Assembly: GCA_028355015.1 (NCBI GenBank)
Contig: JAOMRN010000001.1
Span: 129,229-193,228, forward strand
Direction: 5' to 3'
DNA: 64,000 nt
Source: Methanobacteriota archaeon
GTDB lineage: Archaea > Thermoplasmatota > Poseidoniia > Poseidoniales > Thalassarchaeaceae
Under the pieces are notes generated by a model, which saw only the letters and a list, made by a program, of their open reading frames with translations, did not search any database and was not told the origin of the DNA. Positions within the stretch are counted from its first letter, which is position 1; each line of letters opens with the position of its first letter. The translations under genes were made by a program, and so were the position numbers. Positions 42,410-54,820 of this stretch are shown piece after piece.

Positions 42410-42484
42410 GCGCCTGTAGTGAAGGGGTTATCACCTGAGGTTTCCAACCTCATGTCCCGGGTTCAAATCCCGGCGGGCGCACCA
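42410..42484 (+). tRNA. tRNA-Gly (anticodon UCC), CCA encoded
   Basis: Hand-folded. Acceptor is GCGCCUG/CGGGCGC. D stem is GUGA/UCAC. Anticodon stem is UGAGG/CCUCA with loop UUUCCAA. T arm is CCGGG-UUCAAAU-CCCGG. The 3' end is ACCA. Confidence 0.9.
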
Positions 42485-42542: not shown

Positions 42543-44429
42543 ATGTCTGACAAGGAAGTCACTACGATGTCTAATGAAATTGGAATAAGTAAAGATAGTT
42601 CTGATATCGTAGACGATAAACAAATAGTCGGTCGTAAAATCTGGAGAATAGTACCATATTTGAAGAGATATTGGAAAAGAGCATTGGGTGGAGTAGTTAC
42701 TAATGGTATAGCCCGAGCTTTCGACTTAATACCATTTGTTGCTATAGGGATGGCTGCTGATTATTATAGAGATGAACTAATTCCAGATTCAATTATTGGT
42801 GACTTTGTTACATCCGATATTCTTCCTTCCTTGGGCCCAATGAATTCAGTAGAGTTTGGTTTTGGTTTCTTGATTCTAATGTGTTTTACTTGTCTTGCTA
42901 TTTTCCAGGGTCTTAGTAATCAACTTTGGCAATCAACTGCTTACATGGCTCAACATGACATTCGAATGGATGCTACTGATTCATTGATGGCGATGGAAGC
43001 ATCATATTTCGAAACGCGACAAACTGGTAATCTGATGTCTGTTTTATCAGCTGATGTGGCTCAATTAGAAGATATAATTTCTGACGCTAGTACTAGTATG
43101 ATACGTTTAGTCATGACATTCGCCACTGCATTTGGTATTATGTTCTGGATGTCTCCCACTTTAGCTGTAATTTTATTCGCTCCTTTAGCCCTAATTGTTC
43201 CTATGGTAGTATGGTTTTCCACTAGAGTCCAACGTAAATATAGGAAGACAAGAGAAAGTACTGGAGGAATAGTAGCCATACTAGAAAACGTATTATCAGG
43301 TATAACCGTTGTACAAGCTTACAATGCTACTAGCTTTGAAAGTTCTAGGATAGGGCGACAAAGTGGAGATTATCGTGATCAATCTATTTCTGCGGCATTC
43401 GTTAGAAATCGTTTCATTCCCGGAATCTATGTTGTTGCAGGTATCTCATTCGGCCTTCTTGTTTCAGCAGGTGGGTGGGTTATGGCTTCAGGTGAGATCA
43501 CGGTGGGGCAGTTCGTCACATTTCTTTTGATATCAACTAGAATGACTATGCCTATGTTCATATTGGGTATGCTTCTTAATCAGTTACAGAAAGGTGAGGC
43601 TTCTTCCAAGAGAGTATTCGCAATAATTGATTTAGAACCATCAATTTACGATAAAGAAGGTGCCATTGAATTAGATGGACCAATAACCTCTATTTCTTTC
43701 GAGGATGTATCTTTCTCCTATCCCTCGTCTGAAGGAAATGTCCTCAATGGTATTTCTTTTACTGCATCTTCTGGTGATTCACTAGGCGTCATGGGACATA
43801 CCGGTGCAGGGAAAAGTACAATTCTAAAATTAGTAGAAAGGTTTTACGAGCCCCAGAGTGGTGAGATTCTAATTAATGGTATAAGTATAAATGAATATTC
43901 TATTAAATCTGTAAGGAATAGGATTGGTTTCGTATCTCAAGAACCATTCCTCTTTTTCGGTACCTTACGTGAAAATATAGCTTATGCGCGTGATGCCACT
44001 AATGATGAAATTAAGTCTGCTTTGGAAACAGCGGGTGCATTGGAATTCACCTCTAAATTACCTGAAGGAATTGATACGATGGTAGGTGATCGTGGTGTGA
44101 TGCTTTCAGGAGGCCAAAGAGCACGCATAAGTCTAGCGCGAGCACTTCTTAATAATCCTGATTTATTAATTCTCGATGAAGCAAGTGCTGCCTTAGATGC
44201 TGAAACTGAAAAGAGAATTCAACAATCTCTTTTCGGGGGATCTAATGGTGGTAAAAAGAGAATTACTATTGCCGTCGCCCATAGGTTGGCGACAATAAGA
44301 AACTCGGATGAAATAATTGCATTAGTTGATGGTGTTATTGTAGAACGTGGAATACATAATCAATTAATCGAAAATAACAATGTTTATGCATCTCAATGGT
44401 CAATTCAAACGGGGGAAATTGATTCTTAG
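42543..44429 (+). CDS. ABC exporter, fused TMD-NBD (MsbA/multidrug type)
   Basis: 628 aa with Walker A 'GHTGAGKST', signature 'LSGGQRARISLARAL' and Walker B 'LLILDEASAALD'. Confidence 0.9.
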   Translation: MSDKEVTTMSNEIGISKDSSDIVDDKQIVGRKIWRIVPYLKRYWKRALGGVVTNGIARAFDLIPFVAIGMAADYYRDELIPDSIIGDFVTSDILPSLGPMNSVEFGFGFLILMCFTCLAIFQGLSNQLWQSTAYMAQHDIRMDATDSLMAMEASYFETRQTGNLMSVLSADVAQLEDIISDASTSMIRLVMTFATAFGIMFWMSPTLAVILFAPLALIVPMVVWFSTRVQRKYRKTRESTGGIVAILENVLSGITVVQAYNATSFESSRIGRQSGDYRDQSISAAFVRNRFIPGIYVVAGISFGLLVSAGGWVMASGEITVGQFVTFLLISTRMTMPMFILGMLLNQLQKGEASSKRVFAIIDLEPSIYDKEGAIELDGPITSISFEDVSFSYPSSEGNVLNGISFTASSGDSLGVMGHTGAGKSTILKLVERFYEPQSGEILINGISINEYSIKSVRNRIGFVSQEPFLFFGTLRENIAYARDATNDEIKSALETAGALEFTSKLPEGIDTMVGDRGVMLSGGQRARISLARALLNNPDLLILDEASAALDAETEKRIQQSLFGGSNGGKKRITIAVAHRLATIRNSDEIIALVDGVIVERGIHNQLIENNNVYASQWSIQTGEIDS

Positions 44430-45135
44430 AGGTGATTTTTTGGAGATACAATGGATAACTGTAAATCCAGGGAAAGTATACCTTGGCTCTGACAATCGTT
44501 CAATTATTTTTGGAGGAATTGGTCCTCGTCATGAAGTAAAAATTGATTATGAATACGAGATTTCATTCTTGCCTATTTCTCGAGAAAATGCTTCTAAGAT
44601 ATTAGAATCAACTGACTGTTATATTGCTTCTGAATCAGAGTGGGAGTTAGCATTCCAACAGGATTTAATTTCGGGAAATAATGAATTAGAAGAACTATCC
44701 GATCGAATAAGGGGATCTTATTGGTCCAAATATTGTGATGGTAGATCATTCATAGAGGATGATTGGATAATGAAAGTCGCACGTACCTGGAGTTCTGGAA
44801 ATGTTTCTGCTAGTCCAATCAATAAAGATAATAATTCAGATTACATAAGGTTAGTTAAGAGACCTAGTAATGACATGTTTACTACCGAATCTCCACAATT
44901 GCCCGAATCTTCGAATAAGTCTCGATTAATTCTTGAAGAATCCGCTATCTCGCTAATTTTTGGCATAATACCTTCTTTTCTATGGGCTCACTTCAATGCG
45001 AGTGAGGGATATATTTTAGAAGGCTGGTTAAATCTTGTTTTTGGTGGTATTTTTATTGGGATATTCACAGTTATTTTTTGGAGACCTCGGACTAAATCAT
45101 GGCGAATAGGGAATAATTGCAACTCAATGAAGTAG
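44380..45135 (+). CDS. FGE/SUMF1-like domain protein with C-terminal TM helices
   Basis: 251 aa. 'PGKVYLGS...GPRHEVKIDYEYEIS' and 'ASESEWELAFQ' resemble the formylglycine-generating-enzyme fold. The start is ambiguous: the ATG at 44380 overlaps the ABC gene by 50 nt, and an in-frame TTG lies at 44440. Confidence 0.4.
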   Translation: MFMHLNGQFKRGKLILRGDFLEIQWITVNPGKVYLGSDNRSIIFGGIGPRHEVKIDYEYEISFLPISRENASKILESTDCYIASESEWELAFQQDLISGNNELEELSDRIRGSYWSKYCDGRSFIEDDWIMKVARTWSSGNVSASPINKDNNSDYIRLVKRPSNDMFTTESPQLPESSNKSRLILEESAISLIFGIIPSFLWAHFNASEGYILEGWLNLVFGGIFIGIFTVIFWRPRTKSWRIGNNCNSMK

Positions 45136-45293
45136 TTCTAATTCAAACTTTCCTCAACAATCTAGTATTCGCTTTCCTATATCAATTTTCCAATTCTTTC
45201 TATAAATCACTATCCTCAAAATCGTTTGGCTCTATTGTAAAAAGTGCTTTGATAAACTTCCAAAACATCTTACTCACTCCTTTCTCCCATTTT

Positions 45294-45962
45294 TTACCAC
45301 TCCTTTGTTCGAAACTTCCCCAATGTTCCATAGGTAATACTTTCTGATCTTGGGAAAGGAATTATGACGTTTTTCTCCATATTAATTCTTCTTAGATTTT
45401 GTATAATCCATTGGCAACCGAATGAAGCTGCATTGATGAAACCGAATTGAATATTTCCTGAATCTACTGCACCTTCATATTGACAAGATCCTGGCTTTTG
45501 ATTTTTATCTGTTACTTTATCTATTTCTAAATTTGTAACTGTGTTGTCAATAGCCATGAAATTATCTCCTCTACATCTCAGATCTACCCATCTACAATCT
45601 GTTGAATGAACGACCATTCTAGCTTCTGATGAATCTACGCAAACAACTATCAAGTCATTATCAACAATTTCTTGCTTATTTCTAACATCTTTGGCATGAG
45701 GAATTATTTCTAATCTTCCATTTTCAAAACATTTCAAATTCCTATAAGTTGCATTAACTTTCTTCTCACCTATGTTCGAAGGAAAAAATCTCTGATGAAA
45801 TATATTACTTTCTTCTACTTCATCCGAGTCATACAGATTAATTTTAATATTTTCAAATTTTGTTGCTAAGTCTCCTTGAGACAAAGATGGTATCAATAAT
45901 GCAGCTACATTTGAACCAATCCCACCGACCCCTATTATTGCTATACTTAATGCATGATTCAT
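45294..45962 (-). CDS. ThiF/MoeB/E1-like adenylyltransferase (minimal, 222 aa)
   Basis: It has the Rossmann loop 'IAIIGVGGIGSNVAALL' (45903-45938), then 'LYDSDEVEESNIFHQRFF', 'GEKKV' and 'DLIVVCVDSSEARMVV'. This is the canonical order of E1-superfamily motifs. The start overlaps the E2 stop as ATGA, and a GGAGGA Shine-Dalgarno sequence lies upstream. Confidence 0.8.
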   Translation of the reverse strand: MNHALSIAIIGVGGIGSNVAALLIPSLSQGDLATKFENIKINLYDSDEVEESNIFHQRFFPSNIGEKKVNATYRNLKCFENGRLEIIPHAKDVRNKQEIVDNDLIVVCVDSSEARMVVHSTDCRWVDLRCRGDNFMAIDNTVTNLEIDKVTDKNQKPGSCQYEGAVDSGNIQFGFINAASFGCQWIIQNLRRINMEKNVIIPFPRSESITYGTLGKFRTKEW

Positions 45963-46723
45963 TGAAAATCCTCCAAATTAGAAAATACATTTTCATATAA
46001 TTTCATCTGTGTTGTTTTTTGTGATTCTTCCCAATAACTCCAATCATTACTTATGTTTTTTAATATCAAATCTCTCTTATTTGCAAATGAAAATTCACTA
46101 TCAGTTTTATCCAATTCGATTAACCATTCACTATATTGACTTATTTTATTAAAATCTATACCTTCCGAATTATTACCTTGAAACCAACTAATTATAATTC
46201 CTTTAATCATAGCTGTTCTCAAAGTCCTCATGTTCCTATCAAGTACTGAAGTCATATCTTCAGACAAACAATTCATTACAGAAACAATATGATCACCGGA
46301 CCAAAAAAGATGGTTTACAGAAGTTTTTACATCTAAGCAAATATGCTGCCAGCGCCCCTCTGAATGATCATACCAATGTGTTTCGAAATGAATTAATTTT
46401 TGAAATGTGAATAAGATTGATTTTAGATTTCTGTGACTCAACTCAACTTTTTGAATTCTTTTAGATAATAGATTTGCAATTCTTGATTCGAAAGATAATG
46501 TTAATCTATAATTAATTCCAGATTCTCTGCCATTTATGAAAATATGACATTTTCTACTTGAGTCGTATCCATCATCTATCGTGCAATCAATCGCTGCTCC
46601 AATTCTTTTCCTCTCAGATTCAATCCATTCTAGTGATTTATTGTGTGCATCTAAATTAGGGGTAATATATCTAAAAATTCCATTCTTTCTCTCTGGTGTA
46701 TATTCTTCTTCATTTCCTATCAC
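45959..46723 (-). CDS. UBC-like E2 ubiquitin-conjugating-enzyme homolog
   Basis: 254 aa. 'KLIHFETHWYDHSEGRWQHICLDVKTSVNHLFWSGDHIVSVMNCL' parallels the eukaryotic E2 core 'F.T.I.HPNI...G.ICLDIL...WSPA..I..VL.SI'. The candidate catalytic Cys129 codon is at 46337-46339. The start is GTG with GGAGGTG 5 nt upstream. Confidence 0.65.
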   Translation of the reverse strand: MIGNEEEYTPERKNGIFRYITPNLDAHNKSLEWIESERKRIGAAIDCTIDDGYDSSRKCHIFINGRESGINYRLTLSFESRIANLLSKRIQKVELSHRNLKSILFTFQKLIHFETHWYDHSEGRWQHICLDVKTSVNHLFWSGDHIVSVMNCLSEDMTSVLDRNMRTLRTAMIKGIIISWFQGNNSEGIDFNKISQYSEWLIELDKTDSEFSFANKRDLILKNISNDWSYWEESQKTTQMKLYENVFSNLEDFQ

Positions 46724-46948
46724 TCAAACACCTCCTAAATTTTCGATTTTTTCTTCTTCCTCTAACACAAGAGCACGATATGCTGTAACTCCTGTCAAAA
46801 TTTCTCTTATCTTAATCAATATCGATAAGTTTCTTTCAATATAATTCGTTAATGATAAAATAGTATCTGGATCTAAATTATGTCCGTTATTTTCTATTAT
46901 CTGTATGATTAATTGTATATCATCTTTCATAGACAAATCTTCAATCAC
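46724..46948 (-). CDS. Small acidic protein of unknown function inside the Ubl operon
   Basis: 74 aa. The start is GTG with a GGAGGTGA Shine-Dalgarno sequence 6 nt upstream. It overlaps the JAB stop by 1 nt and abuts the E2 start. Confidence 0.5.
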   Translation of the reverse strand: MIEDLSMKDDIQLIIQIIENNGHNLDPDTILSLTNYIERNLSILIKIREILTGVTAYRALVLEEEEKIENLGGV

Positions 46949-47451
46949 TATTCATCACCTCCTAGATTATGATTAAGAATCCCATAATAGACCATTTTAG
47001 CTAATTTTGATTTGACATTATATGCCAGATATTCATTATGTCCTAATACGATGCATGAATTCATCACAGATTTCCATGCATTAATTGTCATCCAATCTCT
47101 TTCGCTGAAATATGCTCTTCCTGAAGGGTGAGTATGGATACAACATTTAATTGGTAATTGCATTTTATTACCATTAGTCAATTCATCTTCATGATTTATG
47201 AATGATACCAAAGAAGATGTCCCACTGCTAATGTATAAATCATCTTTATCATCAATAATAACCATCACTTCTATTTCATCTAGTTCGTCTACAGACGTTT
47301 TCCATATTGCTGTCATAAAGACTTCAGTGGAATTGTTAGGGAAGAGATATTCTATATCATCCGCCATATCATTATGTACATCTCGTATATGCTGCTTCCA
47401 ATCTACTTCATTTTCTATTATATTTTTATTTTTTATTTGTTTTATTTTCAT
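46948..47451 (-). CDS. JAB/MPN (JAMM) metallopeptidase
   Basis: 167 aa. 'HTHPSGRAYFSERD' (47095-47136) is an exact HxHx7Sx2D JAMM zinc motif. An AAGGAG Shine-Dalgarno sequence lies upstream of the ATG. Confidence 0.85.
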   Translation of the reverse strand: MKIKQIKNKNIIENEVDWKQHIRDVHNDMADDIEYLFPNNSTEVFMTAIWKTSVDELDEIEVMVIIDDKDDLYISSGTSSLVSFINHEDELTNGNKMQLPIKCCIHTHPSGRAYFSERDWMTINAWKSVMNSCIVLGHNEYLAYNVKSKLAKMVYYGILNHNLGGDE

Positions 47452-47544
47452 TTTATTTTCTCCTTTTTATTTATCCATCAACATAGAGTGTACCCTATCC
47501 TGACTTACGTTAATCCGGGCTCTTTCGAGCAAATAATCAGTCAA

Positions 47545-47754
47545 TCAACCGAACACAATACGTGGCATCACTCTCACGGTTCCAACTGTAGACCAATCTG
47601 CTTCAGCCAATTCTCCTGGCTCAATCATCTGTCCTCCAGCGAAAACCCAACGCTCATTGTCAGACACGAGATCAACAGTCTCTCTCTGAGTCAATAAAGC
47701 GATGGTGTGCCCCGTATGGTCAGCAATTTCGACTTTTGTCGTTATGTTTTCCAT
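47545..47754 (-). CDS. Ubiquitin-like beta-grasp protein (ThiS/MoaD-like) ending in a free C-terminal Gly
   Basis: 69 aa. The tail '...GTVRVMPRIVFG*' resembles the '..GD.V.I.PPV.GG' tails of ThiS/MoaD. The terminal Gly codon at 47548-47550 is followed directly by TGA. A GGAGGT Shine-Dalgarno sequence lies 7 nt upstream of the ATG. Genomic linkage to E1/E2/JAB supports the call. Confidence 0.6.
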   Translation of the reverse strand: MENITTKVEIADHTGHTIALLTQRETVDLVSDNERWVFAGGQMIEPGELAEADWSTVGTVRVMPRIVFG

Positions 47755-47846: not shown

Positions 47847-47963
47847 CTATTCCCAGTCTTGAGCTACAAATGCGCCACCAATCATTCCAGTGATTGGTGC
47901 ACAAGTCATTGTGCCCACGACCAAACCAACAGTTCCGCCTACGATCGCTTTTAGCAATCCCAT
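47847..47963 (-). CDS. Glycine-zipper hydrophobic micro-protein A (38 aa), unannotated in the ORF track
   Basis: My translation is MGLLKAIVGGTVGLVVGTMTCAPITGMIGGAFVAQDWE*. The ATG is at 47963-47961, with an AAGGAG Shine-Dalgarno sequence at 47975-47980 (minus-strand sense). It is preceded by a conserved leader repeat. Confidence 0.6.
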   Translation of the reverse strand: MGLLKAIVGGTVGLVVGTMTCAPITGMIGGAFVAQDWE

Positions 47964-47974
47964 AACATATCACG

Positions 47975-48080
47975 CTCCTTGTTTGTGTCGTCTCTGTGCC
48001 CGAGACACGAGCCCTGTTTCCTTTCTAACAGGAAGTCATCGCATTTGCGAATAGAGTGTGTTCGGTCACTCGTCACATCC
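47975..48080 (-). repeat. Leader repeat copy 1 (upstream of micro-protein A)
   Basis: It shares with copy 2 the blocks CTCCTTGT, CTGTGCCCGA, CCCTGTTTCCTTTC.AACAGGAAGTCATCG..TTTGCGAA and ACTCGTCA.AT (plus-strand reading). It contains the hairpin CCTGTT(48013-48018)/AACAGG(48027-48032). Confidence 0.8.
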
Positions 48081-48191
48081 GCCGTCATATCCGTCTATGC
48101 CGTCCCAGTTTCCTGCAAGCAGAATTGGGATTGCTAGCGGTCCAACAACGACCGCTGCAGTGCCTGCAGCTATCCATCTCAATATTCCTAT
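48066..48191 (-). CDS. Glycine-zipper hydrophobic micro-protein B (41 aa), paralog of A, with ATA at the position of A's ATG
   Basis: Translation (I/M)GILRWIAAGTAAVVVGPLAIPILLAGNWDGIDGYDGGCDE* aligns residue for residue with peptide A over the first ~18 aa. AAGGAGGTG lies upstream. The aligned start codon is ATA (48191-48189), and an in-frame TTG lies at 48182-48180. Confidence 0.45.
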   Translation of the reverse strand: MGILRWIAAGTAAVVVGPLAIPILLAGNWDGIDGYDGGCDE

Positions 48192-48199
48192 ATTTTCAC

Positions 48200-48307
48200 C
48201 TCCTTGTGTTATTTCACTTCTGTGCCCGAAGTTCAGGCCCTGTTTCCTTTCCAACAGGAAGTCATCGTGTTTGCGAAAAAAATCACGTCCGATTACTCGT
48301 CATATTT
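48200..48307 (-). repeat. Leader repeat copy 2 (upstream of micro-protein B)
   Basis: The same conserved blocks are offset by 225-227 nt from copy 1. The hairpin arms are identical and the loop differs by one base. Confidence 0.8.
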
Positions 48308-48405
48308 TCTATGTCATTCTGATTATCATCCGGAAAGAAATCCACTAGATTCTCTCCAGCAATTGCTAAGTATGCTAAACGCCATAAAAACTCTTTAATT
48401 CTCAT
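48283..48405 (-). CDS. Possible third micro-ORF (40 aa) overlapping the stop of the membrane-protein gene
   Basis: Translation is MRIKEFLWRLAYLAIAGENLVDFFPDDNQNDIENMTSNRT*. Its 3' end occupies the same position in leader copy 2 that the 3' end of peptide B occupies in leader copy 1. Confidence 0.25.
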   Translation of the reverse strand: MRIKEFLWRLAYLAIAGENLVDFFPDDNQNDIENMTSNRT

Positions 48406-49534
48406 TATGTTCTACCTCATCCTCAACCCAGACAGGGCGATTCATCCATACGAATACGATCAAAATCGTTGCTAATCCAATTACAATAAATGTCGAAAAT
48501 ATTGTACCATCAACAATCCACGCTACTGCTAGAATTGGATTTGAAAATAATCTGCCTTGATTTCTCGAGTATTCTCTAGGGCATCCTTCTAAATTTAATT
48601 TTTCAAACCCCCATTCAACTTCTTTTTTGAGAATCGGGAATAACACGGCTGTACCTCCGGTTATCATTACGATTCCAAAGAACCATGTAGACTCAAATAA
48701 CAACATCAACGCTGAAATAAAGGTTATAATCAAACCAATATTCACAAGAAATCTATCTTCAATTATACGCTCTAATATCCCCGGTACAGCAGCTCCTATC
48801 AATGTAGAGATAGCGATAATTCCTCCAAGCGAAATTATCTCGGGTTGGTCTGAAATCGCTATAGTACCGGTAAGAATAATCACAAGTCGAGAAATAGATA
48901 CACTGTTGTTTAGAAATCCCTCAAGGAACGCCAAGATGGCTGGATACTGAAAAGTATCGACCCACCTAAGATGATTTTTTGCTCTAGTTTCTTTTCCGTC
49001 AGAAATTATATCTTCTTCTCTTGAGATAATTATTAATGCGAATAAAAGGAAACTCAAAGACAGGATCAATAGCAGCCCAGAACCTAACCATTCAACAAAG
49101 AAAGCCGCAGCCATAATCAAGATTATTCCACTTGCTTTCTCAAAGCAATTCCAGAGCTTAAAATTCATATCTGATTGGTGCTGGAGTTTGTAGAAAGCTG
49201 GCCAAAACGAGCCCACATAGAATCCTGAGAAGACGCCTCCACAGAGAATAAAGATCAATTCTTCAAACTGCCATGCACAAATGAAAAATAAGAAAGAAAT
49301 AACTCGTAATTTCACCGAATTACTGATTATATTCCAATTGAAATTAATATTAGAAGCATTCAACAACCCTGATGTTGCAGTAGCCGCAATCAACATTGTA
49401 ATATTTAGAGCAAGCAGTCCTATATCTCCACTTATTTCGTAAGCTAATTTGTACCCCCCTATCGTCCAACCTGCCTTCTCTGCCGCCTGTATAAGCCATC
49501 TAATCCCATATATCTTGATTTTTCTATTATTCAT
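48395..49534 (-). CDS. Polytopic membrane protein (transporter-like, about 10-12 TM helices)
   Basis: 379 aa, almost entirely hydrophobic helices with one central charged loop ('SREEDIISDGKETRAKNH'). This gives an MFS-like two-halves layout, judged from topology only. Confidence 0.45.
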   Translation of the reverse strand: MNNRKIKIYGIRWLIQAAEKAGWTIGGYKLAYEISGDIGLLALNITMLIAATATSGLLNASNINFNWNIISNSVKLRVISFLFFICAWQFEELIFILCGGVFSGFYVGSFWPAFYKLQHQSDMNFKLWNCFEKASGIILIMAAAFFVEWLGSGLLLILSLSFLLFALIIISREEDIISDGKETRAKNHLRWVDTFQYPAILAFLEGFLNNSVSISRLVIILTGTIAISDQPEIISLGGIIAISTLIGAAVPGILERIIEDRFLVNIGLIITFISALMLLFESTWFFGIVMITGGTAVLFPILKKEVEWGFEKLNLEGCPREYSRNQGRLFSNPILAVAWIVDGTIFSTFIVIGLATILIVFVWMNRPVWVEDEVEHNEN

Positions 49535-49535
49535 T

Positions 49536-49760
49536 TCTTCACCTTTTTATTGTATCTATTATGTCATACCTAAATTTATTTTTACACGAAAATAAAACTT
49601 TTTTTCTTATCTTATCTATTATGTAATACCTTAGTTTTTGAAATCTCCGAAGAGAGAATCCTTCTTAAGTCTTTTATTATGTCATACCTAAATTTATTTT
49701 TTAATAATTGATATATTTTTTTCTTTTCATATCTAATATGTATTACCTTTTAATTAAAGT
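49536..49760 (+). repeat. Four direct ~59-bp tandem repeat units in the divergent intergenic region
   Basis: Core (T)ATCTATTATGT(C/A)ATACCT(A/T)A.TTT starts at 49557, 49617, 49675 and 49734 (spacings 60, 58 and 59). Units 1 and 3 share the identical stretch ATTATGTCATACCTAAATTTATTTTT. Each core is preceded by a T-rich/CTT tract. Confidence 0.85.
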
Positions 49761-49767
49761 TATAAAT
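49760..49767 (+). promoter_or_regulatory. Candidate archaeal TATA box for the RNA polymerase gene
   Basis: TTATAAAT is centred about 30 nt upstream of the ATG at 49795, with no Shine-Dalgarno sequence. This geometry fits a (near-)leaderless archaeal transcript. Confidence 0.3.
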
Positions 49768-49794
49768 CAGATATCTTTCCCAGAAAATGTTAGT

Positions 49795-52700
49795 ATGGAT
49801 AAATCAGAAGAAATTACCACCAAAGTCGTAGTTGATAACGATGAAGTCAGTATCAGTAATCTCATTCAGCTCCTTTCACTAGAAATTGCTAAAGGCACAG
49901 AAGAAAATGATTCATATAAAGGGGGCATTACTCAACAAGATATTGAAGCGTTCAAGCAGGAATTTTCTTCTAGTCAGAGATTTGACCTACATCTCATAAG
50001 ATCTTGGATAAAGACCTTGAAACAACACCAAAATAAAGAATCAGAAGTCTCTAGACGCGAATATTTCAATAATAATTATGAATCATCACTAGGGAAATTG
50101 TATGAATTACCTGAAAAAGAACCTGAAAAATCTTGGTATGATTGGCATATTCATGAAGGGCATAAACTTGGTTATCAACTAGAAGATTTGATGCACCTGA
50201 AATCTGATCTAAGGATTCTACGCCCCAAAAATGATTATTTATTTAAAGTCGCTCTTCAATCCCGAGTAGAAAAAATGGCGGAAGGAAATAGCTCAATTAA
50301 GATATTAGATGGTGATGTACGAAGGCGTGAACAATCGCAATCTGATGACACATCAAGGAAACTTATAACTTCTTTTTCAAAATCATTCAATAATGTGTTT
50401 TCAAATAAGATGGATAAATATGTTGTTCATAGTAACGGAACATCGAATACTTATTGTAACCTATCTATAAAAACCATAGAAGAAATCATTCAAACTTCAG
50501 ATGAAGAGGGGTTATTTGAGAAGATATCAAAAGTATGTGTCCGATTACTAATTAAGGAATCTAGAGAAAAAGAGAGAAAGTCAAGATGGGACAGAAAAAT
50601 GAAAAAGAAGACTGAGGGATATACTAAATATACGGATATATGCCTTATTGAGAAAAACTTTATCATAGGATTGTCGGAATATATCGAAGATAAATTAAAC
50701 AAAGGGTTTCAAAACAAAAAAGAAAGCCTTCAAGAAGATGGAAGATGGATTGGATTGATAAATGCTGACCAAATAAAATTGAATAATACCTTTCTACGCG
50801 CCTCGAGGATTTTTTCACAATTAATAATAGCAGCATTAAATTCTGAGGGATGGATTCAAAGAAGGGCGGGTACATATAATGATTTTTTGTTACATTTACC
50901 AGTCGATGATGATGACAAAGAATCAAAAAATAAGGTGTCAGGACAACATAGAAATATGATGTCTTTTTCTGATAAATTGAAAAAAGAAGTTGCCCCTTGT
51001 GAACTTAGAGATTTTAAAACACGAGAAGAAAATGCAATATTTAGAGTATTAAGGAATGACACGCATAGATACATGTATTGCTGCCCTAGTGATCATAAAA
51101 TTAGTCCTGAGAAAACATCGGGTGGCTACATCAATACAGATTCTAAATCCGGTAGCTCTGTTGGGCTTACTGTTACTAAAGAAAAAAAGATTAGTAAGAT
51201 TACTAATAAATCCTCTCTCTTTTCTTGTAGTAAAAAAAGGTTCGAATATAATAATGAATCTCTCAGAGCATTAAATATTCTTCAAAAAACACAATGGGAA
51301 ATAAATTATGATTTATTGCAGTTTATATCTCTATCAATTGATACTGAGCTTCAGGGTACCTCTTATGCGGATATTCAATTAAAAGAAATATTTAGAAAAT
51401 CATTCTATTATGATGAAGAAATTGAAAACATAAGAGATAGAGATAGACGTAGGTTTGAGAATATAGAGAGGCGTAAACGTTTAACATATATTGGAAGAAT
51501 CTTGAGTCATAATGCCAATGTATTTTGGCATTCATGGGCCTTTGATTGGCGAGGAAGATTAATTGCCAGAGCTCCCATTTTAAGTCCACAAAAATCAGAC
51601 ATCGATCGTTCACTGATTCGATTTAAGGAATGGAAAGAATTAGGCATTAATGGATGGAAATGGTTCAGGATATTTTTATTCAATTTTTGTAAAGAAGATC
51701 CTTATTGGCTCGATGACCAACCGTCAAAATCATTTTCTAAAGATGAAAAATGCAAATGGATTGATAGGAATAAATTAAGAATCAAATCATTAATTAATAA
51801 TATTGATGACCCTAAGGTAATCGCATATCTCGATTTAAATAAATCTCCAATGCCTAAATCTGAAACTTTTCAGAGAATTTCTGTATTGCTTGAATATAAA
51901 AGAATATTAGATGAATACAATGATAAAAAAGATTGGTCCAAAGTTACCTCTGGGCATCCAATTCACTTCGATGCTTCTTCAAATGGCTATCAGCATCTCT
52001 CTCTTCTAATAAATAATAAGCAATTAGCAAAAAAAGTTAACGTTTTACCGAATGAAGTAAAGAATGATATCTATCAAGAAGTTGCAGATCAAGCGATAGA
52101 GAATTGGGATAATAATCAAAGTAAACTTAAAAAATATTTATTAGAAAACTTCAACGAATTAGATAATGAACAGCTTAATTCTATCAAAAATTCTGTTTTT
52201 AATAGAAATTTAGCTAAATTACCTACTATGACTTCTATTTATGGTGCTAAAGACTATGAAAGTTGTTTCATTGGAAGTAACGGAAAAGGAAAACCTAAAT
52301 TTATCAAATCAGGAAAAGTTTGGGTTTGTTGCTGGCATGAAGATTCTCCAATATATCAGAATTTAAGTAAATTAAATAACATAAAATTTTTAGGTCCCAA
52401 TGGATATTTTTCTGAAGATAAGTTTGTTTCTCCAGATAAGAAAGTTTTGAGGCAAAATATATTTGTTGAAAATTTGATTACAGATTATAAAAAATCAATT
52501 GAAGAAGTCACAGGCGGTGCATATGAGCAATTGACTCAGAAATTAAAAAAACTTGTTAATAAAGGCAAAAAACCAGATATCAGTTGGAAACTAGATGATG
52601 GTTCCCAGATTTGGCATTATTATCCAGCGAAGCAAGTAGTTACTAATTATGATTCAACTTCATCTCTAAAATTACTTATCGATACAGATGCTCTGAATTT

Positions 52701-53718
52701 TTCACCGAAGAATAGGGTTGATATTTTACATAAATTAAATGAGTTATCGCACATTTACCCTATGTGTAAGATCGATGATAAATTTATTGAAGAAGCAATA
52801 ATGAATTACAATAAATGGGTTGGAAATGACGAAGATTTTTTTGGAAAGAAAATTGTTGAACTTAATAATAACCTATACATTGGAGAACCTACTTCTTCTA
52901 AATCTAAGTTGCCATGGAAGATTTTATCTCTAAGGTCAGAGGATATAATTTCATTAAAGGAAGTAGATATAAAATTAGAGAAAATCTATAAAAAAATTGG
53001 TAATACAAAAAAACCAGTAAAAAATGAAAAAAAGAAAAAAGAGAAGAAGATTCTACTTAAAAAGTTAGTAAATGAGCAGAGAAAATTAAAAGAAGAAAAA
53101 AAAGAATTAGAGAAATTAATTGATGAAGAACAAACTGATAGCGAGAAAGCGGAGTTAGAATTCCAACGCAGTAATGAAATTCATAATTATTGGGCGGCTA
53201 TATATTATCTCTTCAAAATGTACCCCAAATCTTCATCACAAGATTTACTCAGAGCTATAGAACAACATATGATTCGTAAATTAGAAGATTCCGATGATGA
53301 ATTTATCAAAGCCTGTAAAATGGCGTTTAATATATCGACTAAATGTAATTTCATTGATTATGATGGTAGGGCAGATAAAAGAAGAATTTTATCTGGAATT
53401 TCCCCTAATTTCATACATTCTCTAGATGCTTATCATATGAGATCTTCAATTATTAAATTTTCTGAATCTGTTAAAAACCCATCAATTTGGGCTGTTCATG
53501 ATTCCTTTGGAACACATGCCTGTGATATAGGAAGTTATATTGAAGTAATCAAAGAAATGTTTTTGGGAATGCATAAAGAAAAAGATTTGAACAAATGGTG
53601 TGAAGAAATATCAAAAGAAAATGGCATTGAAGTCAAAGAAGATTCAATTGGGGATCCAGATTTTCGTAACGAGTTAATTAATGGAGAAATTCAGATATCT
53701 GATTTTTTCTTAAGTTGA
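49795..53718 (+). CDS. T7/T3/mitochondrial-type single-subunit DNA-dependent RNA polymerase (about 1307 aa)
   Basis: 'WAFDWRGRL' (DWRGR at 51544-51558) matches T7 'DWRGRVY'. 'IHFDASSNGYQHLS' is motif A, with the Asp codon at 51970-51972 (T7 'DGSCSGIQHFS'). 'LAKLPTMTSIYGA' is motif B, with Lys at 52216 and Tyr at 52240 (T7 'TKRSVMTLAYGS'). 'SPNFIHSLDAYHMR' (53401-53442) matches T7 'APNFVHSQDGSHLR'. 'WAVHDSFGTH' is motif C, with Asp at 53500-53502. The C-terminal 'SDFFLS*' resembles T7 'DFAFA' and mitochondrial 'YFFS'. I prefer the ATG at 49795 over the TTG at 49708. Confidence 0.9.
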   Translation: MDKSEEITTKVVVDNDEVSISNLIQLLSLEIAKGTEENDSYKGGITQQDIEAFKQEFSSSQRFDLHLIRSWIKTLKQHQNKESEVSRREYFNNNYESSLGKLYELPEKEPEKSWYDWHIHEGHKLGYQLEDLMHLKSDLRILRPKNDYLFKVALQSRVEKMAEGNSSIKILDGDVRRREQSQSDDTSRKLITSFSKSFNNVFSNKMDKYVVHSNGTSNTYCNLSIKTIEEIIQTSDEEGLFEKISKVCVRLLIKESREKERKSRWDRKMKKKTEGYTKYTDICLIEKNFIIGLSEYIEDKLNKGFQNKKESLQEDGRWIGLINADQIKLNNTFLRASRIFSQLIIAALNSEGWIQRRAGTYNDFLLHLPVDDDDKESKNKVSGQHRNMMSFSDKLKKEVAPCELRDFKTREENAIFRVLRNDTHRYMYCCPSDHKISPEKTSGGYINTDSKSGSSVGLTVTKEKKISKITNKSSLFSCSKKRFEYNNESLRALNILQKTQWEINYDLLQFISLSIDTELQGTSYADIQLKEIFRKSFYYDEEIENIRDRDRRRFENIERRKRLTYIGRILSHNANVFWHSWAFDWRGRLIARAPILSPQKSDIDRSLIRFKEWKELGINGWKWFRIFLFNFCKEDPYWLDDQPSKSFSKDEKCKWIDRNKLRIKSLINNIDDPKVIAYLDLNKSPMPKSETFQRISVLLEYKRILDEYNDKKDWSKVTSGHPIHFDASSNGYQHLSLLINNKQLAKKVNVLPNEVKNDIYQEVADQAIENWDNNQSKLKKYLLENFNELDNEQLNSIKNSVFNRNLAKLPTMTSIYGAKDYESCFIGSNGKGKPKFIKSGKVWVCCWHEDSPIYQNLSKLNNIKFLGPNGYFSEDKFVSPDKKVLRQNIFVENLITDYKKSIEEVTGGAYEQLTQKLKKLVNKGKKPDISWKLDDGSQIWHYYPAKQVVTNYDSTSSLKLLIDTDALNFSPKNRVDILHKLNELSHIYPMCKIDDKFIEEAIMNYNKWVGNDEDFFGKKIVELNNNLYIGEPTSSKSKLPWKILSLRSEDIISLKEVDIKLEKIYKKIGNTKKPVKNEKKKKEKKILLKKLVNEQRKLKEEKKELEKLIDEEQTDSEKAELEFQRSNEIHNYWAAIYYLFKMYPKSSSQDLLRAIEQHMIRKLEDSDDEFIKACKMAFNISTKCNFIDYDGRADKRRILSGISPNFIHSLDAYHMRSSIIKFSESVKNPSIWAVHDSFGTHACDIGSYIEVIKEMFLGMHKEKDLNKWCEEISKENGIEVKEDSIGDPDFRNELINGEIQISDFFLS

Positions 53719-53725
53719 AGCTAAA

Positions 53726-54820
53726 CTATCTTTCTCTATCGTCTATCTGAAGGCCAGATTTCCCTCTTAAAATTCTAACCCAACCGGTTAATACTCCCAT
53801 TCCATAGTTCCAATGTAATGTGTAAGTTGCTATTGAGGACAGAAAGATAGTTTTCTTTGTTTTACTCGGAGAGTTACCTTTCCAAGATCCATACCATGCT
53901 AATAGATTATACAATAGAATTAGTGTTGGTAATGTATGAACTCCTAATCTAGGTAAGCCCATAGGTACTGTAGATAATCGAATATCCCAGAAATCAGGCC
54001 ATGCCAATCCTCCATTTACTAGACCCCAGAAAAAGAATCCAAATGCTGCTATAACTATTGGAGGAAAAAATGCAACTGCTGTATGCGTAGGTGCTCTTAG
54101 TTCAGGGTATTGATGACTGGCTAAAGTTCTCACAAGTCCATAGTTCCTAATTTGTTTCTTAACTCTTGAAAGGTCTCTTCTTCTATGCCACATAATGGCT
54201 GTTCTATCTGTCCATAGTTTCTTTCCAGTCATCCTGATTCTATGATCAAGCATAACATCTTCAGCTCCTATTGCGCCTTCATCAAATCCACCAATTTCTT
54301 CAAGAACTGAACGTCTATATGCACAATTAACTCCTGGAAGTTGGTTGACTTCATCTAGGTCTTTCTTACCTACTTTACCGTAATTAGTTCCGGCAGTAAA
54401 TATTGTACTACAGAATGCAACATCAATTACTTGTTGCCACATTGTTGATTCATCAACTGGGGCAAAATTAGGGCCCCCTACTCCACTTACCTCTTCTCTA
54501 GAAAACCATGATACTAACTTTTCAACCCAATCCTTGGGTACAATTACGTCATCATCTGTGAATAGTATAACTTCTGATTCAGTAGCATTGATTGCAATGT
54601 TACAAGCATCTGCTCTAGTTCTAGAACCTTCATCATCTATGAATTGAATATTATTTTTTTCACAAATTTTTTTCCCTGGGTCATTTGTAGGTCCAACTAC
54701 GACTATTTCACAGGGTCCTGAATAGGTTTGATTGCTTAACCCTTTTAGGACAATATCTAGTTCTTCATGATTCCTAACACTAGGAATGATTACAGTGACT
54801 GAGTGATTACTCACGACCAT
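53726..54820 (-). CDS. Family 2 glycosyltransferase with C-terminal TM region
   Basis: 364 aa with 'VTVIIPSVRN', 'ILFTDDDVIVP' (DxD) and a hydrophobic C-terminal third. Confidence 0.8.
   Translation of the reverse strand: MVVSNHSVTVIIPSVRNHEELDIVLKGLSNQTYSGPCEIVVVGPTNDPGKKICEKNNIQFIDDEGSRTRADACNIAINATESEVILFTDDDVIVPKDWVEKLVSWFSREEVSGVGGPNFAPVDESTMWQQVIDVAFCSTIFTAGTNYGKVGKKDLDEVNQLPGVNCAYRRSVLEEIGGFDEGAIGAEDVMLDHRIRMTGKKLWTDRTAIMWHRRRDLSRVKKQIRNYGLVRTLASHQYPELRAPTHTAVAFFPPIVIAAFGFFFWGLVNGGLAWPDFWDIRLSTVPMGLPRLGVHTLPTLILLYNLLAWYGSWKGNSPSKTKKTIFLSSIATYTLHWNYGMGVLTGWVRILRGKSGLQIDDRER

Follow-up and report, generated by a model that had tools for sequence, protein, structure and literature searches.

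The stretch of 64,000 nucleotides analysed here, hereafter the window, comes from an archaeon of the Poseidoniales (contig JAOMRN010000001.1) and carries on its minus strand an operon of five genes, whose products are a ubiquitin-like protein (Ubl), a JAB peptidase, a 74-residue protein (p74), an E2-like protein and a minimal E1. All five open reading frames (ORFs), the Ubl included, are present exactly where the original prediction had placed them, and given that the five proteins are conserved in related contigs, these are genes and not chance ORFs. The operon is one half of a conserved pairing with an adjacent T7-like single-subunit RNA polymerase (RNAP), which the original prediction had missed. 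The six genes are the following:

47545..47754, minus strand: Ubl (69 amino acids, aa)
46948..47451, minus strand: JAB/JAMM metallopeptidase (167 aa)
46724..46948, minus strand: p74, 74-aa protein with a GTG start, between JAB and E2
45959..46723, minus strand: E2-like protein (254 aa) with a GTG start
45294..45962, minus strand: minimal E1 (222 aa)
49708..53718, plus strand: T7-like single-subunit RNAP (1336 aa), 2 kb upstream of the Ubl and on the opposite strand

The junctions of the last four genes of the operon are as tight as had been described. The stop codon of JAB and the start codon of p74 have one base in common (TAGTG), the start of E2 directly abuts the stop of p74 (TGAGTG), and E2 and E1 overlap by four bases (ATGA). 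Translational coupling had been proposed for all five genes; it holds for these three junctions, while the Ubl-JAB junction is uncoupled because of a gap of 93 nt, which in close relatives extends to ~530 nt and contains a small peptide gene. In the same way, the GGAGG(T/A) motif thought to precede each start is found 6-8 nt upstream of Ubl, p74, E2 and E1, but JAB has GGAGA only. With 59 GGAGG[TA] sites in the window, both strands taken together, the probability of finding them by chance before four of five starts is ~1e-9, and of the 54 other ORFs in the window that reach 120 aa or more, only 2 are preceded by one. Strong sites of this kind are rare in the genome but used by the cassette, which suggests a distinct translational control or a distinct origin. 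The C-terminal LGG(V) of JAB and p74 was considered as a di-glycine signal and rejected, since it results from the GGAGGT ribosome-binding site of the following gene being read in frame.

The polymerase is recognized by Pfam RNA_pol (PF00940, E 4.7e-41) and by phrog_414 (E 4.9e-72), keeps the palm motifs A, B, and C (DASxNGYQH, R..K..YG, and HDxFGTH), and is ~26% identical to phage RNAPs. An exact look-up of the protein returned no record, and 135 relatives were found in marine metagenomes. The linkage was evaluated in 80 metagenomic loci containing RNAP relatives (28-67% identity), which were scanned with profiles of Ubl, E2, E1, and JAB. The contigs are short, and overall the Ubl system is found near the RNAP in 28 of the 80 loci. 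Where both flanks reach 3 kb or more, it is present in all seven loci; with one flank of 4 kb or more it is present in 21 of 26, and with one flank of 6 kb or more in 11 of 12. For the sole exception among these 12, a twin contig has the system 6.5 kb off, on the side that is missing. The system is either divergent from the RNAP at a distance of 1.6-3.2 kb, as in the window, or co-directional and downstream of it, by 0.3-6.5 kb. Even at the locus of a divergent Ubl variant, a homologous RNAP is found 3.4 kb from the Ubl genes, and there is no clear case of an RNAP without the Ubl system among the loci examined. This RNAP is near-obligately linked to the Ubl system in the genome.

The assignment of the 69-residue protein as a Ubl is supported by its AlphaFold (AF2) model (pLDDT 83), in which the order beta-beta-alpha-beta-beta-(alpha)-beta is of the beta-grasp type. 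All the top matches of this model in a Foldseek search of the PDB are Ubl, SUMO, or Ufm1 domains, ubiquilin included (best E 0.016, probability 0.97), with Ufm1 among the best matches by TM-score (0.57). The protein ends in Gly69 with no extension after it, and 24 of the 26 distinct stand-alone homologs end in G, or in GG followed by 1-4 residues, a pattern that is also that of Ubl precursors trimmed by a deubiquitinase (DUB) in Bil systems (PMC10557695). No Pfam family is matched by the Ubl, the ThiS and MoaD models included, and no match was obtained in NCBIfam, PADLOC, or PHROGs.

The E1 matches the Pfam family ThiF (PF00899) with 46.6 bits, versus a gathering score of 28.1, and consists of a single adenylation domain of 222 residues, in agreement with the minimal, adenylation-only E1 that had been described. 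Its best NCBIfam match is PRTRC_ThiF (TIGR03736), which at 60 bits is far under the cutoff of 144.75; the matches in that database also include ThiF, MoeB, and the 6A-MBL cap2_3 model, and the Cap2 E1-E2 models of PADLOC are matched weakly (E 6e-7; at most 26 bits). UBA5 is the closest solved relative in the PDB, with a marginal match (E 4e-4) that covers the Rossmann half only. Residues G11, G13, G14, D45, D47, N53, Q57, and K68 are invariant in 24 distinct homologs and constitute the nucleotide-binding GxGGxG, DxDxVxxxN..Q, and K, and D110 is present in all 22 aligned homologs. Two cysteines are also conserved, Cys160 in 21 of 21 and Cys130 in 21 of 22 homologs, of which Cys160 would be the counterpart of the crossover-loop cysteine of ThiF (C184) and UBA5 (C250).

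The JAB is just short of the gathering score of Pfam Prok-JAB (E 8.8e-5, 22.8 bits versus 25). Residues 106-119, HTHPSGRAYFSERD, contain an intact JAMM motif (H-x-H-x7-S-x2-D), and the predicted site is formed by the upstream Glu61 together with His106, His108, Ser116, and Asp119. These five residues are kept in 22-23 of the 24 distinct homologs, E1::JAB fusions included, in support of the JAB call. Searches with the JAB sequence gave noise only in the PDB and unrelated matches only in PADLOC (E of at least 0.011). The 74-residue protein, p74, is conserved in the close clade only (12 loci) and has no match in Pfam, NCBIfam, PADLOC, or PHROGs. Other architectures have an unrelated-looking protein of 79 or 80 residues after JAB, and its homology with p74 was rejected, given that the hhalign score of 11.7 compares with shuffled controls of up to 11.5.

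The same four components, Ubl, JAB, E2-like protein, and E1, recur in relatives in at least five gene orders:

Ubl-JAB-p74-E2-E1: the window, L001-L008, L020, and L025-L027
Ubl-E2-E1-JAB-80 aa: L015
Ubl-(Cys-rich extension)E2-E1: L010
Natural Ubl::E2 fusion: P0073, the Ubl part ending in LVGG (hhalign 96.9%, E 1.6e-10)
E2, two tandem Ubls, E1::JAB fusion, 79-aa protein: L021-L024

An E2-like partner is always adjacent in the loci examined. The fusions, together with a company that is shuffled but constant, provide strong evidence that the four proteins work together. In public annotation, these proteins appear as 'hypothetical protein' or as 'ThiF family adenylyltransferase'.

The 254-residue protein is the least secure assignment of the operon: that it is an E2, with Cys129 as the proposed catalytic cysteine, is a plausible reading for which neither fold nor sequence gives proof. 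The family is small, with 49 representatives among 1.84 billion proteins in an exhaustive profile search and 18 clusters among 5.8 billion proteins in a word search. None of 36 family members has a match in Pfam or PADLOC, the protein of the window has none in NCBIfam or PHROGs, and the family profile gave no match to PDB sequences at E <= 10. No 7-mer is conserved across the divergent alignment of the family. Cys129 is invariant in this alignment (A3), present in 22 of 23 further homologs, and nearly invariant down to ~15-20% identity; H27-N28-x-S30, G65-x-x-S68, Y72, W125, D144, D156, and L168-R169 are also conserved. In the AF2 model, which is confident (pLDDT 86, pTM 0.80), an N-terminal helix comes first and is followed by a beta-meander into which two helices are inserted; Cys129 stands straight after the last strand, and further helices come after it. 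E2s of the UBC fold account for ~35 of the 50 best Foldseek matches in the PDB, none of which is significant, and a search of viral structures returned nothing significant or nameable (best E 5.7e-3, to unnamed proteins). When the family profile was compared by hhalign with four canonical E2 sequences, the global alignments were junk, while the sole local match is ungapped and sets Cys129 on Cys85 of UBE2D2 and the preceding strand on beta4. The W-(S/P)-G-D...helix that follows Cys129 resembles the W-S-P-A...helix of UBC proteins, and the HPN motif is absent.

The E2 call of the original prediction is in this way supported by Cys129 and its register with UBE2D2, by the predominance of UBC among the fold matches, by the Ubl::E2 fusion, and by the adjacency to E1, but not by any significant match of fold or sequence. 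For neither this protein nor the Ubl did the profile and fold searches lead to an unrelated fold, given that UBC and Ubl, respectively, come out on top, although weakly. Judged by its sequence, the protein belongs to no described E2 family and would represent a new E2-like family.

Alternatively, the 254-residue protein could serve as a dedicated substrate or as an adaptor or E3-like factor, or be an enzyme of an unrelated kind, and conjugation would be carried out directly by the E1, in the manner of UbaA and the SAMPs of haloarchaea. No E2 is required for archaeal SAMPylation, and such a role would agree with the lack of a significant match to any E2, with the missing HPN motif, and with the two-helix insertion and long helical C-terminal half of the model, which are unlike canonical E2s. 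Nonetheless, this is considered unlikely, given that UBC is still the best fold family, that the ungapped register places Cys129 on the catalytic cysteine of E2s with a UBC-like helix following it, that this cysteine persists among very distant homologs, and that the ATGA coupling to E1 and the fusion with Ubl have parallels in Cap2 and BubAB.

Relatives also have extra E2-like paralogs. One family of 571-640 aa has an E2-like domain embedded in it (hhalign 94.7%, E 6e-8, score of 63.5 versus a shuffled maximum of 22.7), and another, of 303 aa, matches around the Cys motif (76%, E 2e-5). These hint at substrate-specific or E3-like variants, and are located at:

L021, 13320-16954
L044, 14449-16368
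L038, 11500-12423

A CxxC-rich N-terminal extension of 130-190 aa is found on the E2-like proteins P0064, P0065, P0067, and P0072 (L010, 539-1699), and may be a zinc-binding, E3-like, or target-recognition domain. At L014 (1860-3375), two E2-like paralogs stand in tandem beside an RNAP fragment at the contig edge. L016 (3960-7595) and L019 have an RNAP-less arrangement E1-JAB-79 aa-294 aa beside glycosyltransferase genes, and no Ubl can be recognised there; in L016, the 294-aa protein contains an 'RNVCIQ' motif with a marginal match to the Cys motif of E2 (E 0.049). The families G13, G3, G5, and G21 were tried as E2-like and rejected, and G4 is marginal.

The operon was compared with known systems using the class definitions for Bil, Bub, and those of Iyer 2006 (PMC10557695, PMC11601596, and PMC1779556). 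The cascade resembles Bil, Cap2/Cap3, and Bub in its working but is a member of none of them. Bil (BilABCD, types I and II; classes 6C/6d of Iyer 2006) is a bacterial antiphage system that is likewise encoded in a compact operon, and the four-part inventory of Bil is indeed mirrored here: single or tandem beta-grasp Ubls with a conserved Gly plus few residues, a Cys-E2, a JAB DUB, and an E1. In Bil, the JAB DUB matures the Ubl, and the E2 (BilB) has a catalytic Cys with an adjacent His, CEHH in type II (PMC10557695); class 6d includes a fifth small helical protein (PMC1779556). In contrast, no conserved His follows Cys129 in A3, and the E2-like family has HN-S, G-SG-Y, and D144/D156 signatures instead of the Bil motif. 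The Bil E1 (BilD) is multidomain, with inactive and active adenylation domains and a CYS domain, whereas here there is one ThiF domain of 222 aa. Gene order also differs, and Bil has a bacterial host, whereas the present system is archaeal and linked to an RNAP. The defence models of PADLOC are matched neither by Ubl, p74, and E2 nor by the 36 members of the E2 family.

With type II CBASS Cap2/Cap3 (and the related Pycsar and 6A-MBL systems), the operon shares a non-canonical minimal E1 of the UBA5/ATG7 type and a JAB partner. The order E2 then E1 is that of Cap2, as had been noticed, with an ATGA overlap of two separate proteins here versus an E2-E1 fusion in Cap2. However, Cap2/Cap3 has a CD-NTase and an effector, whereas no CD-NTase (in line with what had been reported), effector, or MBL gene was found among the neighbours scanned with Pfam and PADLOC, and Cap2 conjugates the cyclase itself, whereas a dedicated Ubl is present here. 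Bub (6E/DUF6527) uses a Cys-less E1 and E2 with Ser and Tyr oxyesters, and its JAB cuts the BubAB Ubl-E2 fusion at a conserved Gly (PMC11601596), such trimming of Ubl precursors and Ubl-E2 fusions at the conserved Gly being common to the DUBs of Bil and Bub (PMC10557695; PMC11601596). Fusions of the Bub kind, Ubl::E2 and peptidase-E1, occur in relatives of the present operon, but the order of the latter is E1::JAB and not JAB::E1. Furthermore, Cys129 of E2 and Cys160 of E1 are conserved here, while Bub is without catalytic Cys, and the BubE (DUF6527) serine protease of Bub has no counterpart among the window neighbours, as judged by Pfam.

Outside bacteria, the UBA5-UFC1-UFM1 system provides the closest solved E1 relative and one of the best Ubl matches. 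UFC1 is an E2 that lacks the HPN motif, which is also missing from the E2-like protein here. That system is eukaryotic, whereas here the operon is archaeal and has no UFC1/UFL1 homology. SAMP/UbaA and Urm1-type systems share an archaeal setting, a beta-grasp modifier, an E1, and a JAMM peptidase, but have no E2, and the modifier of SAMP/UbaA is of the ThiS/MoaD family, which the present Ubl does not match. In Caldiarchaeum and Asgard archaea, the Ub-E1-E2-RING-Rpn11 operon encodes a UBC E2 of the canonical type (UQ_con), a RING E3, and an E1 that is large and UBA1-like. Pfam reveals none of these here; the absence of a RING E3 agrees with the original prediction. The PRTRC cassette provides the best named match of the E1, but far below cutoff, and no ParB and no PRTRC A-F protein was found with the NCBIfam models.

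Taken together, the five genes probably encode a complete minimal Ubl-conjugation cascade of an unclassified family in Marine Group II (Poseidoniales), which constitutes half of an ancestral RNAP-linked module. This reading is built on the gene set, the catalytic residues, their conservation, and the gene linkage as observed, whereas every chemical step of the cascade is inferred. The Ubl already ends in Gly69, whereas the forms of relatives with GG plus 1-4 residues, or fused to E2, would be trimmed by JAB. The ThiF-type E1, probably a homodimer like UBA5, ThiF, and MoeB, would adenylate Gly69 and would probably take the Ubl onto Cys160, possibly aided by Cys130. The Ubl would then be passed on to Cys129 of the E2-like protein, which would transfer it to targets, and JAB would also remove the tag. 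The T7-like RNAP would be the other half of the module, with which small membrane peptides and a conserved RNA leader, described below, would travel along. The cascade and the RNAP may work together, either because the polymerase transcribes the module or because tagging acts on the polymerase or its products. For this setting, a role in conflict and defence or in stress response is the most likely, defence and conflict being favoured because of the analogy with known systems, the fast evolution, and the allelic replacement presented below; a regulatory role tied to the polymerase or to the membrane proteins is equally open.

Several observations weigh against this reading. For the E2 fold, statistical significance is not reached (Foldseek E >= 0.13, TM-score <= 0.37), the local hhalign match to UBE2D2 is not significant (E 0.4), and no hidden Markov model of any E2 family matches the 254-residue protein. 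The fold matches of the Ubl are also weak (E >= 0.016, TM-score 0.4-0.57). No E3, target, or effector was identified among the genes examined, the scheme assigns no step to p74, and no neighbouring gene matches a known defence family. Finally, close relatives (L001-L008 and L020) keep the operon without the RNAP, and therefore the cascade does not strictly need the polymerase.

A different function for the same set of proteins would be that of a sulfur carrier, in which a Ubl of the ThiS/MoaD/CysO kind is converted to a thiocarboxylate by the E1, a JAB like Mec+/QbsD exposes the GG, and the 254-residue protein relays or accepts sulfur for a thiolated metabolite or tRNA. JAB and E1 are known to occur together with a small beta-grasp protein where no conjugation takes place (Iyer et al. 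2006, PMC1779556), and the minimal E1 of ThiF/MoeB type with both these names among its NCBIfam matches, its two conserved cysteines, the GG ends of the Ubls, and an E2 assignment that is not statistically proven are all compatible with such a function. This explanation is nonetheless rather improbable, given that no rhodanese, cysteine desulfurase, ThiG/MoaE-type, or other biosynthetic partner was found in the neighbourhoods inspected, that the Ubl has no Pfam match to ThiS or MoaD and has fold matches to Ub, SUMO, and Ufm1, and that the only fold likeness of the cysteine protein is to E2s. Moreover, the E2-like protein is fused to the Ubl in one lineage and has paralogs in others, which fits the transfer of a tag better.

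The conjugation cascade resides in an archaeal host, as had been supposed, given that TBP, PCNA, Nop56/58, fibrillarin, and Cdc6/Orc1 are encoded in the window. The cassette is placed between a GT2/PCNA/Nop56/fibrillarin block and an ABC-transporter/TatD/TBP block, and it is found in metagenome-assembled genomes labelled Thermoplasmatota, Candidatus Poseidoniales, and Euryarchaeota archaeon, which correspond to Marine Group II. In distant loci, where the RNAP is 28-35% identical, the flanks contain orthologs of window neighbours (Nop56, fibrillarin, Fpg, and methylmalonyl-CoA mutase, 52-82% identity), and MCM is also among the syntenic neighbours. Given this syntenic chromosomal region, the module looks ancestral and vertically inherited. 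Across the distant loci, identity is 47-60% for Ubl, 38-46% for E1, 26-37% for JAB, 25-31% for E2, and 28-36% for RNAP, versus 54-82% for the flanks: the genes of the module have diverged more than their flanks and evolve faster.

Replacement of the RNAP region is seen between close strains. In the window-like strains L002 and L003, the DNA from E1 to JAB is 97-98% identical to that of the window and is followed, from the N-terminus of JAB on, by an 80%-identical Ubl. There is no homology over window positions 47,980-53,727, which contain pep2, its leader, and mem379 (presented below) as well as the RNAP; in their place are two unrelated genes, encoding a protein of 379 aa with eight transmembrane (TM) segments and one of 607-673 aa. 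The latter was tried as E2-like and found not to be so. L025-L027 carry the RNAP-bearing allele.

That the cassette and the RNAP are an integrated mobile element or virus, which would use its own polymerase and tagging to manipulate the host and would belong neither to the host nor to a defence system, is in line with the lower GC content of the 44-54 kb stretch (0.30-0.35 versus 0.38-0.40 in the rest of the window), with a polymerase of phage type, with strong GGAGG sites unlike most host genes (2/54), with HNH and TFIIB-like genes in some relatives, and with RNAP-plus and RNAP-minus alleles in near-identical backgrounds, but it is very improbable because the synteny near Nop56, fibrillarin, Fpg, and MCM, with core genes 54-82% identical and a GC content of the loci that ranges from 31% to 61%, points to vertical inheritance, because neither the RNAP nor the E2-like protein was found among 2.9 million viral contigs of IMG/VR, and because no integrase, capsid, terminase, or replication genes were seen, no search having been made for direct-repeat borders.

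The region between the Ubl and the RNAP, where the genes that accompany the module are found, contains the following features:

47847..47963, minus strand: pep1, a 38-aa glycine-zipper-like hydrophobic peptide, directly upstream of the Ubl
47964..48060, minus strand: leader copy 1, with two hairpins and AAGGAG, upstream of pep1
48066..48254, minus strand: pep2, a small TM peptide with the acidic tail ...NWDGIDGYDGGCDE; start uncertain (ATA or TTG)
48187..48285, minus strand: leader copy 2, upstream of pep2
48395..49534, minus strand: mem379, a 379-aa polytopic membrane protein (~10 TM), at the head of the minus-strand gene string

The peptide pep1 is found in six loci, always on the strand of the Ubl and at a median of 96 nt from it. 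It is 66% identical (E 5e-15) to the product of a small ORF that precedes the distant Ubl::E2 fusion of L012 and is, across the distant systems, more conserved than the enzymes; its Pfam matches are sub-threshold only. pep2, with a TM helix and a conserved ...DGIDGY...DE tail, occurs at 29 loci, where it often directly follows the RNAP. In the clade of the window, ATA occupies the position of its start codon, and pep2 belongs to no Pfam family. In 10 loci, a member of the mem379 family (G14) lies next to the RNAP, upstream of it and divergent, and a homolog (E 1e-15) is found upstream of the Ubl::E2 fusion in L011; mem379 has no Pfam family either.

The leader is an element of ~75 nt that includes a 59-nt direct repeat, the two copies of which are 85% identical, and its core occurs twice in the window versus 0 expected by chance. 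The core is exact in L025-L028 and L030-L032, where the RNAPs are only 41-67% identical, and is present twice per locus, with a single copy at the edge of L028. It was not found, with up to three mismatches allowed, in the RNAP-less L001 and L020. Three pairs of the stems have compensatory changes, and no Rfam family is matched. One may speculate that the leader is a candidate promoter or 5' untranslated region (UTR) for the RNAP.

On the other side of the operon, a possible small ORF (22-43 aa; MFWKFIKALFTIEPNDFEDSDL) overlaps and follows the stop of E1:

45200..45331, minus strand: possible small ORF, low confidence

It is called as a 43-aa gene in L001-L006, and in the window GGAG precedes an internal ATG. 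A 251-aa protein with two C-terminal TM segments is encoded convergently to E1 (44380-45135, plus strand); it is kept in the close clade only and matches no family. A tRNA-Gly(UCC) is located at 42410-42484 (plus strand), 2 kb from the cassette and just before the ABC transporter. In other genomes, co-directional RNAP-Ubl islands contain a TFIIB-type zinc-ribbon (Pfam E 7.6e-6, below cutoff) and an HNH endonuclease (L021, 12356-13315; L023, 6964-7293).

Considering these elements together, it is possible, although this is put forward tentatively, that the RNAP, the cascade, the small membrane peptides, and the structured leader are one ancestral, self-transcribing protein-tagging unit of Marine Group II. 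The RNAP would express the module by way of promoters of its own, the leader being the candidate for such a promoter or for a 5' UTR, and the cascade would tag the polymerase, its products, or invading or viral proteins. If true, such a self-transcribing tagging module would be a kind of system without described counterpart, and the polymerase would be the first cellular, vertically inherited phage-type RNAP outside organelles. A literature search found no publication on a Ubl system of Poseidoniales, on a T7-like RNAP in archaeal chromosomes, or on a link between RNAP and Ubl.

Complete E1-E2-Ubl-DUB cascades outside eukaryotes comprise the bacterial antiphage systems (Bil, Cap2/Cap3, and Bub) and the eukaryote-like operons of Caldiarchaeum and Asgard archaea. 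The operon described here would add a third kind, a bacterial-style minimal cascade with an unclassified E2-like family that belongs natively to Marine Group II. This group is described in the literature as the most abundant of the planktonic archaea in surface ocean waters, and within it the cascade appears to be old and vertically inherited. What is new is the E2-like family and the host domain for a cascade of bacterial style. It is unexpected to find a single-subunit RNAP retained in the chromosome of an archaeal lineage, and also to find it tied to protein tagging; both points bear on the diversification of Ubl signalling before eukaryotes and on the use of orthogonal transcription in cells.

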